Assembly (NCBI GenBank): GCA_000004695.1
Contig: CM000155.2
Location: 2,464,001-2,528,000, forward strand
DNA length: 64,000 bases
Reading direction: 5' to 3'
Source: Dictyostelium discoideum
Taxonomy: Eukaryota
Numbering within the stretch: the stretch's first letter is position 1; each line of letters begins with the position of its first letter. Below are positions 7,300-21,290 of this stretch, in pieces. The notes below the pieces were generated by a model, which was not told the origin of the DNA, made no database searches, and saw nothing but the letters and a program-made list of their open reading frames with translations. The position numbers were made by a program, and so were the translations under genes.

Positions 7300-8812
<1,513 letters not shown>

Positions 8813-9464
8813 ATAAAGGATCACCCAAACTAATTCTATTTTTAATATTAAAAGATTTTTATTACCAATAAAACCAATAAATAAAAAATAAAAAAAAAAA
8901 AAAAAAAATAAGATTTGTTTTAATTTATCACTAATTGTGTACCTCTTTAACTTTATTTATTTTTTTATAATTTTTTTAAAATTTATTTTAAATAAATAAA
9001 AAAAAAAAATTGTTGAAATTAATAATGGTTATTTAAAAGCAAAATTTTAATCATTTCCAATTAAAATTTTTTTTTATCTCTTTATTTATTTTCTATCCAT
9101 TTTTAATTTATCAAAATAAAATTCCAAATAAAAAAAAAAAAAGAAATATGTTTAAATTTAATTTTTAAATTACCAACCAAACAAGATTTTCAAATTAATA
9201 TTAATAAAATTATTATCAATTTTTGTTTAAATTTCTAAAATAAAATAAATTAATGTAATGTTATTAAATATAATTCAAAAATTTCCTAATGTATCTAAAT
9301 AAAAAAAAAAAAATAAAAAAATTATACACCTTTTTAATTTATTTTTGTTTTTATTTTTATTACACTTTTTTTTTATTTTTTTTTTGTTGTTTTTTCACAT
9401 TTTTTTTTTTGTTTTTTCATTTTCTTTTTTTCATTTTCTTAATTCCATTTTTTTAATTTCCACA

Positions 9465-11350: not shown

Positions 11351-12936
11351 CAAAAATTTATAAATTATTTACCATTATCAACAGAATTTAAAGAAAGAAT
11401 TTTATATATGTTAAGTTGTGATAAATCAATTGCACAATTTCAAAGATTAAATATAGTTATGGTTTGCAAACATTTCTTTTCTACATTTAGTAAACTTATT
11501 AATAATTCAACGATTGTACCAATCATTTTAAGTTATAATCAATTTAGTAATCTTATTAGTAATTCATTTAAAAATTTTAGATCAAATTCAATGATTTCAT
11601 TTCAAAAAGTGAAATATTTAAAGATCTTTAACGATAGAATTCCAAAACTAACAAACACTGAAAAAATTGAAGAATCAAAATTATCATTAAGATCAAAACA
11701 ATTGAAAAATATATTATCACCACCACCACCACCAATGACAACTAAATTATTTACATCAACAATGTTAACCCATGAAAGTTTTTTTGGTTCAATCTATTTT
11801 TCAATTGACTTTTTCACTGGATTAGAAATTCTTGAAATTGATCAACTCATTGAATTTCATCAAGTTTTATTACTCAAATCACTAAAAAAGATAATATTAC
11901 ATCTTGAACAAAGTGAAGGTTCATCATTTGGTCCTGAAGATAAAGAGAAAATCGATCTTTTAGTAAATGGTGGTATTTTCAATGATTTTACAACTGATGG
12001 ATATATTGTTGAATTACATTTCAAACATTATAAAAATAAAAATCATGGTATAGATATGTCATTAGTGAAATCAGTTTCAATGGGATTATCGAAATTCTTT
12101 GATTTATTCGATGATGATATGGCATCAATACCAATACTTTATTTAGATTTAAATGATTCTCCAACAAGAAATTCACTAGAAACCTTTAAAAAATATTTAA
12201 AATCATCTCCAAAGAAATTATTATTAAATGAATTACATTTACATTTTTCAGTTCATAGTAGTAGCATAATAGGTAATAATAATAATAATAATAATAATAT
12301 TTTAAGTATTGAAAATATTTTAGAGAATTTCAAATCATTCAGTAAAATTCAAACATTATATTTCCATATTACATCCAATGAAATACCAATACCATCTAAA
12401 GTAACCATACAATCAGTTATTAAATCAACACTCGAATTTATTTTATCAAACTTCAAAATGGTCAACAAAGTTTTATTCATCGATGAATATGGTCTTCCAT
12501 TGAATATTGATTGGTATCATATTTTAAATATATTACCTAAAGTGAATATAAATACTTTTGATTTCATAGGGTTTCATATTGATAACCAACCTGATATCAC
12601 AAAGGCTATTGAAGGAAATAATAAAAATAATTTATCAATTAACCAACAACAAAAAGAACAACCAACAAAAACAACAACAACATCAACAAAAACAACAACA
12701 ATAACACCGACAGTAGCAGAAACAAAACAACCAAAAGCAGCAAAAACATCAGAAACAAGACAACCAACACCAATAAAAACAAAACAAACAACAACAACAC
12801 CAACACCAACACCAATAAAAACAACACCAACACCAACACCAACAACAACACCAACACCAACACCAACAACAAAAATACCAACACCAACACCAACAACCAC
12901 AAAAACAACAACAACACCAACACCAACAACAACACC

Positions 12937-12982
<46 letters not shown>

Positions 12983-13486
12983 CCAACACCAACAACAACA
13001 CCAACACCAACAACAACACCAACAACCTCAAAACAACCTCAAAAACCTAAAGAACAATCGCATGAAAACATTGCTTTTACAGATTTTTATGGTTTTAATG
13101 AAAAGAATAGTGAAAAAGATAGCGAAGATGAAGATGAAGATGAAGATGAAGATGAAGATGAAGATGAAGATGAAGATGAAGATGAAGATGATGAGGATAA
13201 GTTTTCGGATGATTGTAGTTCTGACTCATTTTATTTTAGAGAGTACTCTGATAAAAGAGAACTTGGTCAAACTGATGATGGACAATTCACTCCATCAAAA
13301 TATTCCAGAACGAGACATATGTATCATGGTGGTGGTGGTGATGATTCTGATGATTCTGATGATGGCTCAGACTCTGATGAAGCCGCTAACTTTTTTGCTC
13401 ATCAATTAGCAAGAGCTTCATTACATGGAATGTTGGGTGCTTTAGGTTTTCTTGATAATTCCGATAGTGACGATGATTCTGATTGA
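10343..13486 (+). CDS. Large hypothetical protein (at least 1047 aa) with poly-N tracts, a T/P-rich mucin-like repeat region (12650-13030), a (DE)n acidic run (13125-13200) and a conserved C-terminus (FYGFNEKNSEKD...DDCSSDSFYFREYSDKRELGQTDDGQF...LHGMLGALGFLD).
   Basis: 3.1-kb uninterrupted ORF. The frame is open upstream back to 10247 with no in-frame ATG, and the track start at 10343 is a TTG, so the true 5' end probably lies in upstream exons. The ACACCAACACCAACA repeats encode TPTPTT. I recognise no family. Confidence 0.6.
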
Positions 13487-14498: not shown

Positions 14499-14516
14499 AA
14501 TTTAGTTTGAAAAGAG

Positions 14517-14588
14517 CTCCCCATCCGGGAATCGAACCCGGGGTACCAGTGTGAGAGACTAGAGTGTTACCGACTACACCAATGAGGA
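14517..14588 (-). tRNA. tRNA-Glu (anticodon CUC).
   Basis: The minus strand reads TCCTCATTGGTGTAGTCGGTAACACTCTAGTCTCTCACACTGGTACCCCGGGTTCGATTCCCGGATGGGGAG. The 7-bp acceptor stem has one G-U pair. The D-arm is GTGT/ACAC. The anticodon stem is CTAGT/ACTGG with loop CTCTCAC. The T-arm is CCGGG-TTCGATT-CCCGG. The discriminator is G. Total length is 72 nt. Confidence 0.8.
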
Positions 14589-14760
14589 ATTGGATGAAAT
14601 TTGTAATAAAGTTCCTCTATAAAATTAATAGATAATAAATATGCATTCACATTACTAATTGTGTGACACACATTTAAATAATATAATAATAATAATACTG
14701 TCAACTCATTATAAATAATATAAATACTAAAGAATAATTTTATTAACAAAATTGGTAATT

Positions 14761-14833
14761 TAGAAACAATCTAAATTAAATAAAAAACCTCAATTTGTAA
14801 TGAAGGTTTTTTATTTAATTTAGATTGTTTCTA
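14761..14833. repeat. Perfect palindrome with 29-bp arms (tagaaacaatctaaattaaataaaaaacc / ggttttttatttaatttagattgtttcta) and a 15-nt loop.
   Basis: Arm 1 is 14761-14789, the loop tcaatttgtaatgaa is 14790-14804, and arm 2 is 14805-14833. It lies about 170 bp upstream of the tRNA-Glu 5' end, between the tRNA and the TRE remnants. Confidence 0.85.
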
Positions 14834-15132
14834 ACGATTAAAATGAGATATCTAAAGAAGCAACTAAAAATTGCGTTATTCGAAAAAAACAAACAACAAC
14901 AACAACAACAACAATCTCTTTTTTTGATTATTTCATTTTTCATATAAAAAGACATAAAACAAATAAATAAATAAAAAAAATAAACTATTTTAAAAAGCCA
15001 TCTTTTTACTTTATTGTAATTTATTATTTGTTTCGTTTTGAAAAAAAAAAATGAAAAAAATAATCAGATCGAAAAAAACAAACAACAACAACAATCTCTT
15101 TTTTTGATTATTTCATTTTTCATATAAAAAGA

Positions 15133-15168
<36 letters not shown>

Positions 15169-15459
15169 GAACCCAAGTTAATCAGAAAATTTCCAGATTT
15201 TTAACTTTTCAAAGTAAAATAAAAAAATTAGAAAGAAAATAAGATGAAAATTACAAACAACACCACAAATATTAAGCGACACAAATGCCTACGAAAAATA
15301 AGCGAAATTGTGAATAAAACTCAATTAAAAAAAAAACAATTCAAATACGTCATAAACATCAATCACGAACCAGACGATAAAATAAAAAAAGATTTAGAAA
15401 AAAGTTTGGACAAAAAAGATGTTTTAATCAAAAGTAATAATACAATTCAAAATTTGAAA

Positions 15460-15514
<55 letters not shown>

Positions 15515-15600
15515 CCCCTCTTTTAGAGACCCTGTAAAAAACTACAAATAAAATGAGATCTAGCATCTCAAGGAGAAGCAACTAATAATTGCGACTTCAT
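14832..15600 (+). mobile_element. Degenerate TRE5-A-like retrotransposon remnants upstream of tRNA-Glu. They comprise a solo 3'-module fragment (14832-14878), two A-modules (14879-15140), a B-module, the first 66 codons of ORF1 (from 15244) and a 3'-terminal module (15516-15597) without an A-tail.
   Basis: A-module sequence gatcgaaaaaaacaaacaacaacaacaatctctttttttgattatttcatttttcatataaaaag... occurs at 14879 and 15066. The B-module cctgagaacccaagttaatcagaaaatttccagatttttaactttt precedes ATG 15244 (MKITNNTTNIKRHKCL...). The ORF is broken at an A-run and joined to ggtaaacccctcttttagagaccctgtaaaaa...aaaatgagatctagcatctcaaggagaagcaactaataattgcg. Confidence 0.6.
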
Positions 15601-15675: not shown

Positions 15676-15748
15676 TGGAGAAGAAGGGTATCGATCCCTT
15701 TACCTCTCGCATGCTAAGCGAGCGCTCTACCATCTGAGCTACATCCCC
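15676..15748 (-). tRNA. tRNA-Ala (anticodon AGC).
   Basis: The minus strand reads GGGGATGTAGCTCAGATGGTAGAGCGCTCGCTTAGCATGCGAGAGGTAAAGGGATCGATACCCTTCTTCTCCA (73 nt). The anticodon loop is CTTAGCA, the D-loop is AGATGGTA and the T-arm is AAGGG-ATCGATA-CCCTT. There is one T-T mismatch at acceptor pair 6-67, which is why confidence stays below 0.8. Confidence 0.7.
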
Positions 15749-15864
15749 TTTGATGGAAAGTATTTTTTATTAGAAATACTCGTACGTTATTATCTGAGAT
15801 CGAAAAAAACAAACAACAACAACAATCTCTTTTTTTGATTATTTCATTTTTCATATAAAAAAGA

Positions 15865-15909
<45 letters not shown>

Positions 15910-15984
15910 GGAACCAAGTTAATTAGAAAATTTCCAGATTTTTAACTTTTTAAAGAAAAATAAAAAAGATAGAAAGAAAATAAA

Positions 15985-17319
15985 ATGAAAATCACAAACA
16001 ACACCACAAATATTAAGCAACACAAATGCCTACAAAAAATAAGCGAAATTGTGGATAAAACTCAATTAAAAAAAAAACAATTCAAATACGTCATAAACAT
16101 CAATCACGAACCAGACGATAAAATAAAAAAAGATTTAGAAAAAAGTTTGGACAAAAAAGATGTTTTAATCAAAAGTAATAATACATTCAAAATTCTCACA
16201 GACAGTATTAGTACAGTAATCTATTTTGTAAATATGTTTGATGCAGAATTAAAAGGACAATTTATAACCACTATAAGACCAAAAAATATGTATACAGATT
16301 TTGATTGGTATAAATCACTCACAGAAATAGAATGGGTAATAGAAAATGAAGGATGTAAACTAATTAAATCAGAAATTAAAGGCGAAACTCTAATTATCAA
16401 AACAGTGAAAAGAGTCGTAGAAGAATTTGACACTATCATTGAACTAGACAATCTAACATTAATTGGACACTCCAACAAAGGATGGAGAGATCAAACCTCA
16501 TTACCAGAAAATCAAGAAGAAAACAAAAATAAAAAACAATCAGATGAACAACAACCACAATCTACATCAGAACAAATACCAAAACAAGGAAAAAGAACAA
16601 TCATTATCCCACCAATCACATCCTCATCTAATGATAAAACATTTATGGCCCTAGATGATACAGCTCAAAAGGTAATAGATGCATCACTAGAAAACGTAGA
16701 TGAACTAACAAGAATAGAGAATGAGATCAATACACAATCGATAAACAATCAAGAAATTAAAACAAAATCAGAAAAACCTATCGAACCACCATCTCCATAC
16801 AATACACCAATAAAACAACACGGCGAAACAAAGAGACTAACAACGGAAGAAAAACTTAGAGAGGTAAATGATATCTTCGACTTCACCAGCCCAAACACTG
16901 ATGCAATAAGAAAAATAGAATTCCCACTTTCAATCCCTTCAAATCAATGGTTCTTCTCCTCTCCAATAAAACATATCATGAGTTTCAGCCCAACCTATGG
17001 TACACCATCGAAAATTATCGATTCACCAAGTAAATTGTTAAACACACCAAAAAACAAACAACAAGACAAAACAAACAGGACCAACAAAACACCAGTCAAA
17101 CCAAAATTGGGTGAATATGGACAAAAAAGCATAAAAACAAAAATGGATGAAGATATAGACAACTTCAACAAGGAAATTCTAAAACAAATCAGTAAATCAA
17201 AAAACCCCACAAACACACAAGACCAACAACACAATGAACAAAGTAAAGATCAGTTAGAAGACAAAATAAACCAGAAACTTCAAAAGGTAGATAAAAATCT
17301 ACCCCAAATAAAACTATAA
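15985..17319 (+). CDS. TRE5-A-like retrotransposon ORF1 protein (444 aa), intact.
   Basis: ATG immediately after the B-module. It is 99% identical (4 aa differences) to the copy at 18983..20317. Truncated 66-89-codon versions occur at 15244, 17699 and 20725. I recognise no conserved domain, as expected for ORF1 of this family. Confidence 0.7.
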   Translation: MKITNNTTNIKQHKCLQKISEIVDKTQLKKKQFKYVININHEPDDKIKKDLEKSLDKKDVLIKSNNTFKILTDSISTVIYFVNMFDAELKGQFITTIRPKNMYTDFDWYKSLTEIEWVIENEGCKLIKSEIKGETLIIKTVKRVVEEFDTIIELDNLTLIGHSNKGWRDQTSLPENQEENKNKKQSDEQQPQSTSEQIPKQGKRTIIIPPITSSSNDKTFMALDDTAQKVIDASLENVDELTRIENEINTQSINNQEIKTKSEKPIEPPSPYNTPIKQHGETKRLTTEEKLREVNDIFDFTSPNTDAIRKIEFPLSIPSNQWFFSSPIKHIMSFSPTYGTPSKIIDSPSKLLNTPKNKQQDKTNRTNKTPVKPKLGEYGQKSIKTKMDEDIDNFNKEILKQISKSKNPTNTQDQQHNEQSKDQLEDKINQKLQKVDKNLPQIKL

Positions 17320-17572
17320 AGAAAAACACAATAAGAATAGGTGTTTGGAACGTCCAAGGATCCAATACCATCCAATCTGCCAGCATAATAAACACCGTTT
17401 TAGACAACAACAAGCTGGACGCAGCACTTCTAACTGAAACAAATATAAAAACAAATAAAATTTACTCAATAAATCAACAATATAAAAACAAAATAACACA
17501 CCACGCACCAATTGATAAAACAGGACAAGGGGTGTCACAAATCATCATCAACACCCGCAATAGAACTTCCTA
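17300..17572 (+). pseudogene. 5'-terminal fragment of TRE5 ORF2 (APE-like endonuclease N-terminus), overlapping the ORF1 stop in the +1 frame and truncated after about 85 codons.
   Basis: ...KNTIRIGVWNVQGSNTIQSASIINTVLDNNKLDAALLTETNIKTNKIYSINQQYKNKITHHAPIDKTGQGVSQIIINTRNRTS*. The WNxxG...LxxETxI motif is characteristic of the L1/APE endonuclease domain. The RT domain is absent, as in the short TRE5-A.2-class copies. Confidence 0.55.
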
Positions 17573-17615
17573 AACATCTCAAAAAATACAATAATTCACT
17601 CAGTACTTTCTATAA

Positions 17616-17657
<42 letters not shown>

Positions 17658-17999
17658 CAAGTTAATCAGAAAAATAAAAAAGATAGAAAGAAAATAAAAT
17701 GAAAATCACAAACAACACCACAAATATTAAGCAACACAAATGCCTACAAAAAATAAGCGAAATTGTGGATAAAACTCAATTAAAAAAAAAACAATTCAAA
17801 TACGTCATAAACATCAATCACGAACCAGACGATAAAATAAAAAAAGATTTAGAAAAAAGTTTGGACAAAAAAGATGTTTTAATCAAAAAGACCCTGTAAA
17901 AAAAAAAAAAAAATAAAATGAGATCTAGCATCTCAAGGAGAAGCAAATAATAATTGCGTTATCCAATTCAAAAAAAAAAAAAGTACGTTATTATCTAGA

Positions 18000-18862
18000 G
18001 ATCGAAAAAAACAAACAACAACAACAATCTCTTTTTTTGATTATTTCATTTTTCATATAAAAAAGACTTAAAAAACAAATAAATAAATAAATAAACTATT
18101 TTAAAAAGCCATCTTTTTACTTTATTGTAATTTATTATTTGTTTCGTTTTGAGAATTTTGCGTAGCAAAATTTTCAAAAAAAAAGCAAAAAATAATCAGA
18201 TCGAAAAAAACAAACAACAACAACAATCTCTTTTTTTGATTATTTCATTTTTCATATAAAAAAGACTTAAAAAACAAATAAATAAATAAATAAACTATTT
18301 TAAAAAGCCATCTTTTTACTTTATTGTAATTTATTATTTGTTTCGTTTTGAGAATTTTGCGTAGCAAAATTTTCAAAAAAAAAGCAAAAAATAATCAGAT
18401 CGAAAAAAACAAACAACAACAACAATCTCTTTTTTTGATTATTTCATTTTTCATATAAAAAAGACTTAAAAAACAAATAAATAAATAAATAAACTATTTT
18501 AAAAAGCCATCTTTTTACTTTATTGTAATTTATTATTTGTTTCGTTTTGAGAATTTTGCGTAGCAAAATTTTCAAAAAAAAAGCAAAAAATAATCAGATC
18601 GAAAAAAACAAACAACAACAACAATCTCTTTTTTTGATTATTTCATTTTTCATATAAAAAAGACTTAAAAAACAAATAAATAAATAAATAAACTATTTTA
18701 AAAAGCCATCTTTTTACTTTATTGTAATTTATTATTTGTTTCGTTTTGAGAATTTTGCGTAGCAAAATTTTCAAAAAAAAAGCAAAAAATAATCAGATCG
18801 AAAAAAACAAACAACAACAACAATCTCTTTTTTTGATTATTTCATTTTTCATATAAAAAAGA

Positions 18863-18890
<28 letters not shown>
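18000..18890 (+). repeat. Tandem array of TRE5-A A-modules: four complete units of 199-200 bp (starts at 18000, 18198, 18398 and 18597) plus a partial fifth (18796-about 18868) ending in an A-run.
   Basis: Near-identical units gatcgaaaaaaacaaacaacaacaacaatctctttttttgattatttcatttttcatataaaaaagacttaaaaaacaaataaataaataaataaactattttaaaaagccatctttttactttattgtaatttattatttgtttcgttttgagaattttgcgtagcaaaattttcaaaaaaaaagcaaaaaataatca. The copy at 15797 has a single truncated unit. Confidence 0.85.
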
Positions 18891-18907
<17 letters not shown>

Positions 18908-18982
18908 GGAACCAAGTTAATTAGAAAATTTCCAGATTTTTAACTTTTTAAAGAAAAATAAAAAAGATAGAAAGAAAATAAA

Positions 18983-20317
18983 ATGAAAATCACAAACAAC
19001 ACCACAAATATTAAGCAACACAAATGCCTACAAAAAATAAGCGAAATTGTGGATAAAACTCAATTAAAAAAAAAACAATTCAAATACGTCATAAACATCA
19101 ATCACGAACCAGACGATAAAATAAAAAAAGATTTAGAAAAAAGTTTGGACAAAAAAGATGTTTTAATCAAAAGTAATAATACATTCAAAATTCTCACAGA
19201 CAGTATTAGTACAGTAATCTATTTTGTAAATATGTTTGATGCAGAATTAAAAGGACAATTTATAACCACTATAAGACCAAAAAATATGTATACAGATTTT
19301 GATTGGTATAAATCACTCACAGAAATAGAATGGGTAATAGAAAATGAAGGATGTAAACTAATTAAATCAGAAATTAAAGGCGAAACTCTAATTATCAAAA
19401 CAGTGAAAAGAGTCGTAGAAGAATTTGACACTATCATTGAACTAGACAATCTAACATTAATTGGACACTCCAACAAAGGATGGAGAGATCAAACCTCATT
19501 ACCAGAAAATCAAGAAGAAAACAAAAATAAAAAACAATCAGATGAACAACAACCACAATCTACATCAGAACAAATACCAAAACAAGGAAAAAGAACAATC
19601 ATTATCCCACCAATCACCTCCTCATCTAATGATAAAACATTTATGGCCCTAGATGATACAGCTCAAAAGGTAATAGAAGCATCACTAGAAAACGTAGATG
19701 AACTAACAAGAATAGAGAATGAGATCAATACACAATCGATAAACAATCAAGAAATTAAAACAAAATCAGAAAAACCTATCGAACCACCATCTCCATACAA
19801 TACACCAATAAAACAACACGGCGAAACAAAGGGACTAACAACGGAAGAAAAACTTAGAGAGGCAAATGATATCTTCGACTTCACCAGCCCAAACACTGAT
19901 GCAATAAGAAAAATAGAATTCCCACTTTCAATCCCTTCAAATCAATGGTTCTTCTCCTCTCCAATAAAACATATCATGAGTTTCAGCCCAACCTATGGTA
20001 CACCATCGAAAATTATCGATTCACCAAGTAAATTGTTAAACACACCAAAAAAGAAACAACAAGACAAAACAAACAAGACCAACAAAACACCAGTCAAACC
20101 AAAATTGGGTGAATATGGACAAAAAAGCATAAAAACAAAAATGGATGAAGATATAGACAACTTCAACAAGGAAATTCTAAAACAAATCAATAAATCAAAA
20201 AACCCCACAAACACACAAGACCAACAACACAATGAACAAAGTAAAGATCAGTTAGAAGACAAAATAAACCAGAAACTTCAAAAGGTAGATAAAAATCTAC
20301 CCCAAATAAAACTATAA
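18983..20317 (+). CDS. TRE5-A-like ORF1 protein (444 aa), second intact copy.
   Basis: It differs from 15985..17319 by four substitutions (D/E, R/G with V/A, NK/KK with R/K, S/N). It is followed by the same ORF2 5' fragment (20298-20570). Confidence 0.7.
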   Translation: MKITNNTTNIKQHKCLQKISEIVDKTQLKKKQFKYVININHEPDDKIKKDLEKSLDKKDVLIKSNNTFKILTDSISTVIYFVNMFDAELKGQFITTIRPKNMYTDFDWYKSLTEIEWVIENEGCKLIKSEIKGETLIIKTVKRVVEEFDTIIELDNLTLIGHSNKGWRDQTSLPENQEENKNKKQSDEQQPQSTSEQIPKQGKRTIIIPPITSSSNDKTFMALDDTAQKVIEASLENVDELTRIENEINTQSINNQEIKTKSEKPIEPPSPYNTPIKQHGETKGLTTEEKLREANDIFDFTSPNTDAIRKIEFPLSIPSNQWFFSSPIKHIMSFSPTYGTPSKIIDSPSKLLNTPKKKQQDKTNKTNKTPVKPKLGEYGQKSIKTKMDEDIDNFNKEILKQINKSKNPTNTQDQQHNEQSKDQLEDKINQKLQKVDKNLPQIKL

Positions 20318-20613
20318 AGAAAAACACAATAAGAATAGGTGTTTGGAACGTCCAAGGATCCAACACCATCCAATCTGCCAGCATAATAAACACCGTTTTA
20401 GACAACAACAAGCTGGACGCAGCACTTCTAACTGAAACAAATATAAAAACAAATAAAATTTACTCAATAAATCAACAATATAAAAACAAAATAACACACC
20501 ACGCACCAATTGATAAAACAGGACAAGGGGTGTCACAAATCATCATCAACACCCGCAATAGAACTTCCTAAACATCTCAAAAAATACAATAATTCACTCA
20601 GTACTTTCTATAA

Positions 20614-20683
<70 letters not shown>

Positions 20684-21000
20684 CAAGTTAATCAGAAAAA
20701 TAAAAAAGATAGAAAGAAAATAAAATGAAAATCACAAACAACACCACAAATATTAAGCAACACAAATGCCTACAAAAAATAAGCGAAATTGTGGATAAAA
20801 CTCAATTAAAAAAAAAACAATTCAAATACGTCATAAACATCAATCACGAACCAGACGATAAAATAAAAAAAGATTTAGAAAAAAGTTTGGACAAAAAAGA
20901 TGTTTTAATCAAAAAGACCCTGTAAAAAAAAAAAAAAAATAAAATGAGATCTAGCATCTCAAGGAGAAGCAAATAATAATTGCGTTATCCAATTCAAAAA

Positions 21001-21037
21001 AAAAAGTACGTTATTATCTACAATTCAAAATTCGAAA

Positions 21038-21077
<40 letters not shown>

Positions 21078-21290
21078 TAAACCAACCCCTCTTTTAGAGA
21101 CCCTGTAAAAAAAAAAAAATTAAAATAAAATAAAATGAGATCTAGCATCTCAAGGAGAAGCAAATAATAATTGCGTTATCCAATTCAAAAAAAAAAAGTA
21201 CGTTAATTTCTTATCTTTTCTCAAGGAGAAGCAACTAATAATTGCGTTATCCAATTCAAAAAAAAATTCTACGTTATTTCCAATCATGAA
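21001..21290 (+). mobile_element. Oldest, most distal TRE5 remnants. They are solo 3'-terminal modules with A-tails (21019-21075 internal fragment, 21085-21190 and 21205-21268), separated by diverged copies of the target-site repeat.
   Basis: ggtaaaccaacccctcttttagagaccctgtaaaaa(A)n...aaaatgagatctagcatctcaaggagaagcaaataataattgcgttatccaattc(A)n gtacgttaatttct...tctcaaggagaagcaactaataattgcgttatccaattc(A)n ttctacgttatttcc, then unique sequence from about 21285. Confidence 0.55.

Follow-up and report, generated by a model that had tools for sequence, protein, structure and literature searches.

Four TRE5-A insertions are very probably stacked upstream of a single tRNA-Ala gene in Dictyostelium discoideum

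TRE5-A, formerly known as DRE, is a non-LTR retrotransposon of Dictyostelium discoideum, the targets of which are tRNA genes or other RNA polymerase III (Pol III) genes with A and B boxes. Its layout has been described as AB-ORF1/ORF2-BC, where two open reading frames (ORFs) are enclosed by an A-module of about 200 bp, a B-module of about 290 bp that is present in both untranslated regions (UTRs), and a C-module at the 3' end; complete endogenous copies typically carry an extra G at the 5' junction, which has been ascribed to the RNA cap (PMC3159450). The element's 5' end always points toward the 5' end of the tRNA gene, and 80% of the insertions lie inside a window of 47+/-3 bp upstream of it (PMC5391098). 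In addition to the full-length TRE5-A.1, there is a non-autonomous form, TRE5-A.2, which is defined by the deletion of ORF2 (PMC5391098). At tRNA genes that are already occupied, so-called TRE-TRE tandems are formed, and 91 of the 98 occupied genes gained new tagged copies (Spaller et al., 2017, PMC5391098). A nanopore read has documented a new copy above a resident TRE5-A.2, and new copies had duplications of 10-16 bp at their borders (Barth et al., 2022, PMC9012585). Here we describe a locus of this kind in a stretch of 64,000 nucleotides of D. discoideum strain AX4 (assembly GCA_000004695.1, contig CM000155.2, positions 2,464,001 to 2,528,000; hereafter the window), where a series of TRE5-A elements lies upstream of a tRNA-Ala(AGC) gene.

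The tRNA gene corresponds to AlaAGC-14 (AX4 chromosome 6, 2479676-2479748, Table S2 of PMC5391098; the offset of the window is +2,464,000), a gene at which 4, 2030, and 359 de novo TRE5-A(bsr) reads were mapped in three libraries (PMC5391098). The region upstream of it is in all likelihood a TRE-TRE tandem made of four independent TRE5-A insertions, which we designate E1 to E4 with increasing distance from the tRNA gene. They are separated and bordered by copies of a short direct repeat, T0 to T4, and the complete order is T0, E1, T1, E2, T2, E3, T3, a filler of 8 nt, E4, tt, T4, and the unique flank (Table 1). This flank, from position 21282 onward, is single-copy and identical in a second assembly that is introduced below. 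The tRNA-Ala gene is encoded on the minus strand, and all four elements lie to its right in sense orientation on the plus strand, with their 5' ends turned toward the 5' end of the tRNA gene. The original prediction had placed the first element 48 bp from the tRNA gene, and this was borne out: the first base of E1 is at -48, and 47 bp extend from the tRNA position +1 (15748) to the last base of T0 (15795).

Exactly three matches to the 14-mer GTACGTTATTATCT are present in the window, T0, T1, and T2, each of which is located at an element boundary, and not a single match was found in any of 100 dinucleotide-preserving shuffles of the window. On realignment the three copies proved to be identical, in agreement with the earlier claim that one and the same 14-bp repeat delimits successive blocks, but the coordinates given for them (15783-15796, 17984-17997, and 21001-21014) were off by 1, 1, and 5 bp, respectively. 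The progressive divergence of the more distal copies was also correctly recognized, and is represented by T3 (gtacgttaatttct) and T4 (ctacgttatttcc). The core TACGTTA occurs seven times in the window, and five of the seven occurrences are found exactly at the five junctions. Each distal copy of the duplication is directly preceded by a C-module and a poly(A) tail, which comprises 13, 10, 11, and 9 A residues for E1, E2, E3, and E4, respectively. T1 has a double role, and base 17997 (a), which follows it, is the 15th base of the 15-bp duplication of E2; in the second assembly, E2 is flanked by this 15-bp duplication, gtacgttattatcta.

Table 1. Features of the AlaAGC-14 locus in the window (position 1 is the first nucleotide of the window; L006 is the corresponding locus in the second assembly)
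Feature	Position	Strand	Evidence or remark
tRNA-Glu(CTC)	14516-14588	minus	ARAGORN, Rfam
E0, TRE5-A remnant of the neighbouring tRNA-Glu(CTC)	14841-15593	plus	identical in L006 except for A-run lengths
tRNA-Ala(AGC), Pol III target gene	15676-15748	minus	ARAGORN; Rfam RF00005, 58.1 bits
Spacer from tRNA +1 to the duplicated target, 33 bp	15749-15781 (-1 to -33)	plus	direct reading; identical in L006
T0, proximal duplication GTACGTTATTATCT	15782-15795 (-34 to -47)	plus	exact match
E1, TRE5-A.2-type element, 2.19 kb	15796-17982	plus	module map
E1, extra G	15796
E1, terminal partial A-module	15797-15868
E1, A-run, followed by 5' B-module and ORF1	15869-15905
E1, ORF1, 444 aa	15985-17319
E1, ORF2 remnant, followed by an A-run	17320-17613
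E1, 3' B-module	17656-17888
E1, C-module	17889-17969
E1, A13 tail	17970-17982
T1, second exact copy; distal duplication of E1 and part of the proximal duplication of E2	17983-17996	plus	exact match
E2, TRE5-A.2 element, 3.0 kb	17998-21005	plus	module map
E2, extra G	17998
E2, 4.5 tandem 199-bp A-modules, followed by an A-run and 5' B-module	17999-18891
E2, ORF1	18983-20317
E2, ORF2 remnant, followed by an A70 run	20318-20611
E2, 3' B-module	20682-20914
E2, C-module, followed by an A10 tail	20915-20995
T2, third exact copy	21006-21019	plus	exact match
E3, 5'-truncated TRE5-A 3' end, 178 bp	21020-21197	plus	alignment
T3, diverged copy gtacgttaatttct, 2 differences from T0-T2	21198-21211	plus	sole other match in the window with <=2 mismatches
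8-nt filler tatctttt after T3	21212-21219	plus	direct reading
E4, last 38 nt of the C-module and A9 tail, 47 bp	21220-21266	plus	most distal insertion
T4, outermost and most diverged copy ctacgttatttcc	21269-21281	plus	abuts the unique flank from 21282

The assignment of these elements to TRE5-A is based on architecture, host, and target position; the ORF1 proteins match AX4 entries that are annotated only as hypothetical proteins. The position, the orientation, the AB-ORF1/ORF2-BC modules, and the hallmarks of target-primed reverse transcription are all those of TRE5-A, including a B-module with the ORF1 start that is repeated in the 3' UTR of E1 and E2, and 3' ends that in all four elements carry a C-module with poly(A). 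E1 lies between the tRNA gene and an intact E2 and is flanked by the tRNA-proximal duplication (T0 and T1), as described for TRE-TRE tandems. E1 and E2 belong to the TRE5-A.2 type, as ORF2 is internally deleted while ORF1 and the UTR modules are kept (the published size is about 2.2-3 kb). A remnant of 294 nt is all that is left of ORF2: the first 237 nt after ORF1 run straight into the 58 nt that precede the 3' B-module, and these two parts stand about 3.1 kb apart in full-length TRE5-A.1 copies (L002 and L003, loci that, like those cited below, are designated by L numbers). The full-length relatives, with an ORF1 identity of 98.5%, have an ORF2 of 1047 aa with an RVT_1 domain (E = 2.5e-33), and no endonuclease family was found in it with Pfam at E <= 0.01. 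E3 is made up of the terminal bases of the 3' B-module, an A-run, a B/C junction of the full-length type, the C-module, and its tail, and it can be aligned to 3' tails of TRE5-A.1 copies and to fragments in L002, L003, L007, and L008, with 0-2 differences outside homopolymers. The C-module allele of E4, gcaaCtaat, is common only to E4 and to the remnant E0 on the other side of the tRNA gene.

The 5' ends of the two long elements are informative as well. The A-modules of E2 were detected by a tandem-repeat finder with a period of 199, 4.5 copies, and 99% matches, whereas E1 contains no complete A-module (0.5 unit), only the terminal partial module that is common to every copy. Both elements start with G followed by module position 1 (agatcg), while internal module junctions read c-agatcg. 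The same start was observed in many full-length copies (such as L002 12032, L003 3806, and L005 9620). Starts at position 1 of an A-module suggest that transcription can begin at every module boundary. They also suggest that E1 inherited no complete A-module and so may be devoid of a promoter.

E1 and E2 share the ORF2 deletion as well as a deletion at the B/C junction, their bodies are 99.6% identical, and a tandem-repeat finder reports a 71-bp, 1.9-copy repeat that covers the tail of E3 with T3 and E4 with T4. These similarities might be taken to mean that a unit of element plus duplication was copied at the DNA level, by unequal sister-chromatid exchange or by slippage between duplication copies, and that E1/E2 (and E3/E4) arose in this way. 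We regard such an origin as extremely unlikely. The common structure is found in all nine TRE5-A.2 copies, which are located at unrelated tRNA genes, so that it marks a subfamily and not the locus. Moreover, E1 and E2 differ by eight substitutions in the body and one at the A-run boundary, and at the six substitutions that change an ORF1 residue, E1 has the residue of the compared TRE5-A.1 copies; the substitutions are not random, and these six are subfamily alleles. The two elements also differ in the base(s) following the duplication (g in E1, a-g in E2), in the number of A-modules (0.5 vs 4.5), in the tail (A13 vs A10), and in the internal A-run (42 vs 70). E3 and E4, in turn, have different C-module alleles and different truncation points, and the 8-nt filler breaks the supposed unit. 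The blocks are therefore not copies of one another including their flanks, and tandem duplication is largely refuted by the differences within both pairs.

Repeated integration at a Pol III-defined position, which pushes older copies outward, had been proposed for this locus from the outset, and it is supported as the best-supported reading of the array. According to the literature, the TRE5-A pre-integration complex is positioned by the TFIIIC/TFIIIB complex on the tRNA gene, the ORF1 protein binds TFIIIB subunits, and TRE5-A.1 supplies ORF2 in trans. In the mechanism we propose, full-length TRE5-A.1 would provide the ORF2 endonuclease and reverse transcriptase in trans for E1 and E2. Judging from the junctions, the bottom strand would be nicked at about -33/-34, where the poly(A) end would be joined and complementary DNA (cDNA) synthesis would be primed, and the top strand would be nicked at about -47/-48, where the element's 5' end would be joined. 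Fill-in of the resulting stagger of 14-15 nt would then duplicate GTACGTTATTATCT(A). The position would be measured from the tRNA gene and not from the sequence, and the proximal copy of the duplication would always stay beside the tRNA gene; each new event would thus re-duplicate the same bases and land between the tRNA gene and the previous element, leaving the oldest element outermost. Regeneration of the tRNA-proximal duplication in each event would account for the presence of one duplication copy at every boundary. The predicted order of arrival is E4, E3, E2, and E1, and E4 is presumably the oldest insertion. E1 and E2 would be complete cDNA copies of capped transcripts, with which the start G + agatcg is consistent, E3 and E4 would be 5'-truncated copies, and E1 would have entered one base inside the 15-bp duplication of E2, most probably recently, in the AX3/AX4 laboratory lineage.

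The original prediction had also described the distal copies as increasingly 5'-truncated. This holds from E2 (3.0 kb) to E3 (178 bp) and E4 (47 bp), but not for the proximal E1, which is shorter at its 5' end than E2. Because truncation happens at insertion, and because E1 breaks the trend, 5' truncation is not evidence of age.

A comparison with other loci shows how the target position is determined. In L001-L007, the orientation of the element relative to the tRNA gene is the same as in the window. In seven related loci the 5' junction is found at -45 to -50, and at seven tRNA genes the duplications span the region from -32/-36 to -45/-50 without sharing any sequence. Similar positions without a common sequence indicate that the nick sites are set by the distance from the tRNA gene. 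Similar stacks with locus-specific duplications are present at genes for tRNA-Val, tRNA-Thr, and tRNA-Gly. One stack contains three copies of gattaatcaccaat (L002), and another contains three copies of tatatataatttt (L007). In L003, gttttgtaatttaa is found at the T0 position and once more, followed by three copies of gttttgtaattaaa, a stepwise pattern as it should arise when the copy next to the tRNA gene acquires a mutation between two insertions and passes it on to subsequent ones. In L008, where no tRNA gene was detected, cttctgtgaaat follows two successive poly(A) tails.

The most direct information on E1 came from the long-read D. discoideum assembly GCA_054883475.1, in which an exact look-up of the E2 ORF1 returned nine loci. 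One of them, L006, is the same locus as the AlaAGC-14 array, with no substitution in the 5.6 kb to the left of the array and one substitution in the 9.3 kb to its right; all other differences in these flanks concern homopolymer lengths. This near-identity indicates that the assembly represents another NC4-derived laboratory strain. An AX2-214 assembly based on nanopore and Illumina reads was published in 2025 (PMC12745789), and L006 is probably derived from it. L006 contains E0, E2, E3, T3, E4, and T4, and it lacks E1 together with one copy of the duplication. After the tRNA-Ala gene it reads ...aatactc GTACGTTATTATCT a gagatcg, which is the junction of E2 itself and the pre-insertion state predicted for E1. 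In other words, the AX4 state equals L006 plus E1 with a 14-bp duplication, inserted one base inside the duplication of E2, with E2 untouched. The long-read comparison that had been suggested as a check for insertion polymorphism is in effect available here, and the absence of E1 together with the presence of the predicted junction amounts to a filled-site versus empty-site proof of the E1 insertion. Outside of E1 and the A-modules, the region from 10157 to 30402 differs from L006 almost only in the lengths of A/T runs, by up to 25 bases, which is likely to be noise of the sequencing technologies and not biology. A single substitution distinguishes the E2 bodies of the two assemblies: position 19618 (nt 636 of the E2 ORF1) is C in AX4 and A in L006. 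The change is synonymous; A is present in all other TRE5-A.2 copies, and C is the TRE5-A.1 allele.

We lean, by a small measure, toward the view that E1 represents a true new retrotransposition event in the AX3/AX4 laboratory lineage, which took place after the split from the long-read strain (probably AX2-214), and that its source was a rare sub-lineage of TRE5-A.2 in which transcription begins at the last, partial A-module. Two other explanations of the difference between the assemblies have to be weighed against it. The 2005 Sanger assembly of AX4 could have built E1 artificially from other TRE5-A reads, in which case the true locus would contain only E2, E3, and E4. The absence of E1 from an independent long-read assembly of a near-isogenic strain would be accounted for in this way, as would the E1 ORF1, whose combination of TRE5-A.2 and TRE5-A.1 alleles is a unique mosaic. 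Several other ORF1 haplotypes that are listed under AX4 accessions only are mosaics, too, and exact look-ups of the E1 ORF1 (P0002) and of P0005 gave no match in the gene-position index, which returned D. discoideum places from the new assembly only and seems to contain no AX4 gene positions. In addition, the 4.5 A-modules of E2 in AX4, compared with 21.5 identical ones in L006, are what a collapsed repeat would look like. However, the T1 junction (C-module, A13, GTACGTTATTATCT, a, and the gagatcg start of an A-module) could not result from mis-joining a locus of the L006 type, with which the shared sequence at this place is only 15 bp, a single base separates the T0 junction from its counterpart in L006 (tatct-g vs tatct-ag), as expected for a separate insertion, and the 64-kb window is free of N runs. 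We therefore consider an assembly artefact unlikely; it would concern E1 alone, and the stack of E2, E3, and E4 and its mechanism would be unaffected.

The second explanation inverts the direction of the change: E1 would be ancestral and would have been precisely deleted in the long-read strain by recombination between T0 and T1, so that its absence would be silent on the order of insertion. The E1 ORF1 looks like that of an older TRE5-A.2 lineage than E2, and for neither assembly is a copy with this ORF1 recorded that could have served as the source; both observations would agree with such a history. Yet the exchange would have to fall within the 14-bp duplication, as L006 retains the 5' junction of E2 (a + G + agatcg) and not that of E1, whereas an exchange inside the 2.2-kb bodies would be far likelier and would leave the E1 junction. 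The positional integration rule also forbids an older E1 in a position proximal to a younger E2, and TRE5-A frequently inserts anew in laboratory strains, with events documented at AlaAGC-14. A deletion is thus very unlikely, and a recent insertion of E1 remains the favored explanation.

Several observations do not fit easily with serial integration as outlined above. The most conspicuous one is the number of A-modules in E2, 4.5 in AX4 (17999-18891) versus 21.5 in L006 (5628-9905), with identical units. At least one assembly misrepresents the locus, for example by a collapse of the array in the Sanger assembly, or the array grows and shrinks rapidly; other copies in the new assembly have about 1.5 to 9 units (L001 and L007). 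Secondly, the duplications are diverged, while the body of E3 is nearly unchanged. Between T3 and T2, 2 of 14 positions are different, compared with 0-2 differences in about 120 positions of the E3 body, a contrast that is borderline (Fisher's exact test, p = 0.012-0.05, depending on how A-runs are counted) and from which we make no claim; nevertheless, a simple decay with age may be only part of the explanation. As a weaker addition to the model, repeated nicking could make the target window locally mutagenic, so that the duplication would diverge faster than the element bodies. A 19-bp duplication followed by a 5-bp deletion was also considered in order to reconcile T3 with T2, and is possible, yet two substitutions are equally parsimonious or better. 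Thirdly, the exact duplication of E4 and the 8-nt filler are not accounted for. Finally, E1 should be the youngest element by position, yet six residues of its ORF1 are of the TRE5-A.1 type, which gives it the look of a TRE5-A.2 lineage earlier than that of E2, and no possible source copy of it is on record.

The ORF1 sequences of the region have to be seen in the context of the AX4 haplotypes as a whole. The E1 ORF1 is identical to P0002 (EAL60923.1, DDB_G0293142), which is recorded only once, in AX4, and the E2 ORF1 is P0001, the common TRE5-A.2 ORF1, which occurs at 9 or more other loci; the second AX4 entry of the region is EAL60924.1, consecutive with EAL60923.1. The diagnostic alleles of the E1 ORF1 are D232, R284, V294, N357, R365, and S403, in combination with I97 and F148. 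The AX4 ORF1 proteins P0002-P0015 are mosaic haplotypes that make up a series connecting the TRE5-A.1 with the TRE5-A.2 type; for eight of the listed ones there are AX4 accessions only, and P0005 has four AX4 accessions. On the basis of sequence, E1 would be best placed in an intermediate series that leads from the A.1 type via the P0005 type and the E1 type to modern A.2. Template switching between TRE5-A.1 and TRE5-A.2 RNAs, which we considered as a source of the E1 mosaic, would need about four switches and fits less well than an intermediate lineage. The mosaics in AX4 may be recombinant lineages, a chimeric Sanger consensus, or the counterpart of a homogenisation by polishing in the new assembly, and details of transposon copies at the level of single-nucleotide polymorphisms may be unreliable in one or both assemblies.

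The surroundings of the array are AT-rich (23% G+C in the window). The neighbouring tRNA-Glu(CTC) gene matches GluCUC-3 (2478517-2478588 on chromosome 6 of AX4) in spacing and lengths (Table S2 of PMC5391098). In E0, the remnant between the two tRNA genes, a diverged C-module fragment is fused to 1.5 A-modules, a B-module, and a C-module, with neither poly(A) nor a duplication at the point of fusion; this last C-module breaks off at ...aataattgcg. E0 contains neither complete ORFs nor poly(A), and 82 bp separate it from the 3' end of the tRNA-Ala gene. Its start is about 250-290 bp from tRNA-Glu, beyond the usual 47-bp window, with about 200 bp of unique sequence in between. No other repeat family was found in 14589-14840, in the 82 bp downstream of tRNA-Ala, or in the right flank, all of which matched only L006 and low-complexity sequence. 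Between tRNA-Glu and E0, there is a 36-nt inverted repeat (14760-14834, 94% complementary, 3-nt loop), with no match elsewhere in the fetched loci and no Rfam family covering it. Upstream of the tRNA cluster, coding sequence at 12628-13200 contains long in-frame trinucleotide repeats (ACA/CCA, then GAT/GAA), and a diverged copy of part of this gene (75-85% identity) is present at about 7976-8911.

Taken together, the AlaAGC-14 locus is a clean textbook example of retrotransposon targeting that is specific for a position and not for a sequence: a protein complex on the tRNA gene acts as a ruler, and successive insertions regenerate the duplication and build an ordered stack. If E1 is indeed a recent insertion, AlaAGC-14 would provide a natural before-and-after pair for integration at an occupied tRNA gene, and it would show that nicks are reused base for base, at -33/-34 and at -47/-48 (E1) versus -48/-49 (E2). 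On the practical side, the analysis flags a structural discrepancy between AX4 and the long-read assembly (E1, and 4.5 versus 21.5 A-modules in E2), and it calls for caution with the ORF1 haplotypes of transposon copies in the reference.

The features of the array are, one by one, those of TRE5-A.1 and TRE5-A.2: the host, the modules with the duplicated B-module, and an ORF1 of 444 aa without a Pfam family are shared, and the position at about 47 bp, the orientation, the duplications of 14-15 bp (10-16 bp in published cases), the 5' G, and the poly(A) are as described in the TRE5-A literature. Stacking without insertion into the resident copy is common to the AlaAGC-14 array and the published TRE-TRE tandems, from which the array differs by its four stacked events and not in kind. 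Serial stacking at AlaAGC-14 is therefore already known, published behaviour of TRE5-A and no new biology. Specific to this locus are the presence of E1 in AX4 but not in a near-isogenic assembly, its unique intermediate ORF1 haplotype, and its lack of a complete A-module; the presence or absence of E1 in two near-isogenic assemblies is only a modestly new point.

More distant parallels exist in other eukaryotes. The yeast elements Ty3 (and Ty1) likewise target Pol III complexes (TFIIIB) upstream of tRNA genes and reuse the same genes (parallel drawn in PMC5006619). Unlike TRE5-A, they are long terminal repeat (LTR) elements that use an integrase and generate a 5-bp duplication, without target-primed reverse transcription, poly(A), or 5' truncation. 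Ty3 integrates where transcription begins, and Ty1 does so within a broader, periodic window; the tRNA-gene clusters of both contain elements and fragments, and old copies usually become solo LTRs, not ordered head-to-tail stacks. HeT-A and TART at Drosophila telomeres and the R-elements of ribosomal DNA (rDNA) are site-specific non-LTR elements with repeated target-primed reverse transcription at one kind of site. Like TRE5-A, they form ordered, often 5'-truncated copies, the order of which mirrors their arrival. However, HeT-A and TART are added at the chromosome end without a duplication, and R1 and R2 find their target through a DNA sequence that is present in every rDNA unit and build no stacks at a single site, whereas the site of TRE5-A is set by the distance from a protein complex on the tRNA gene, so that the same duplication is regenerated in each event.

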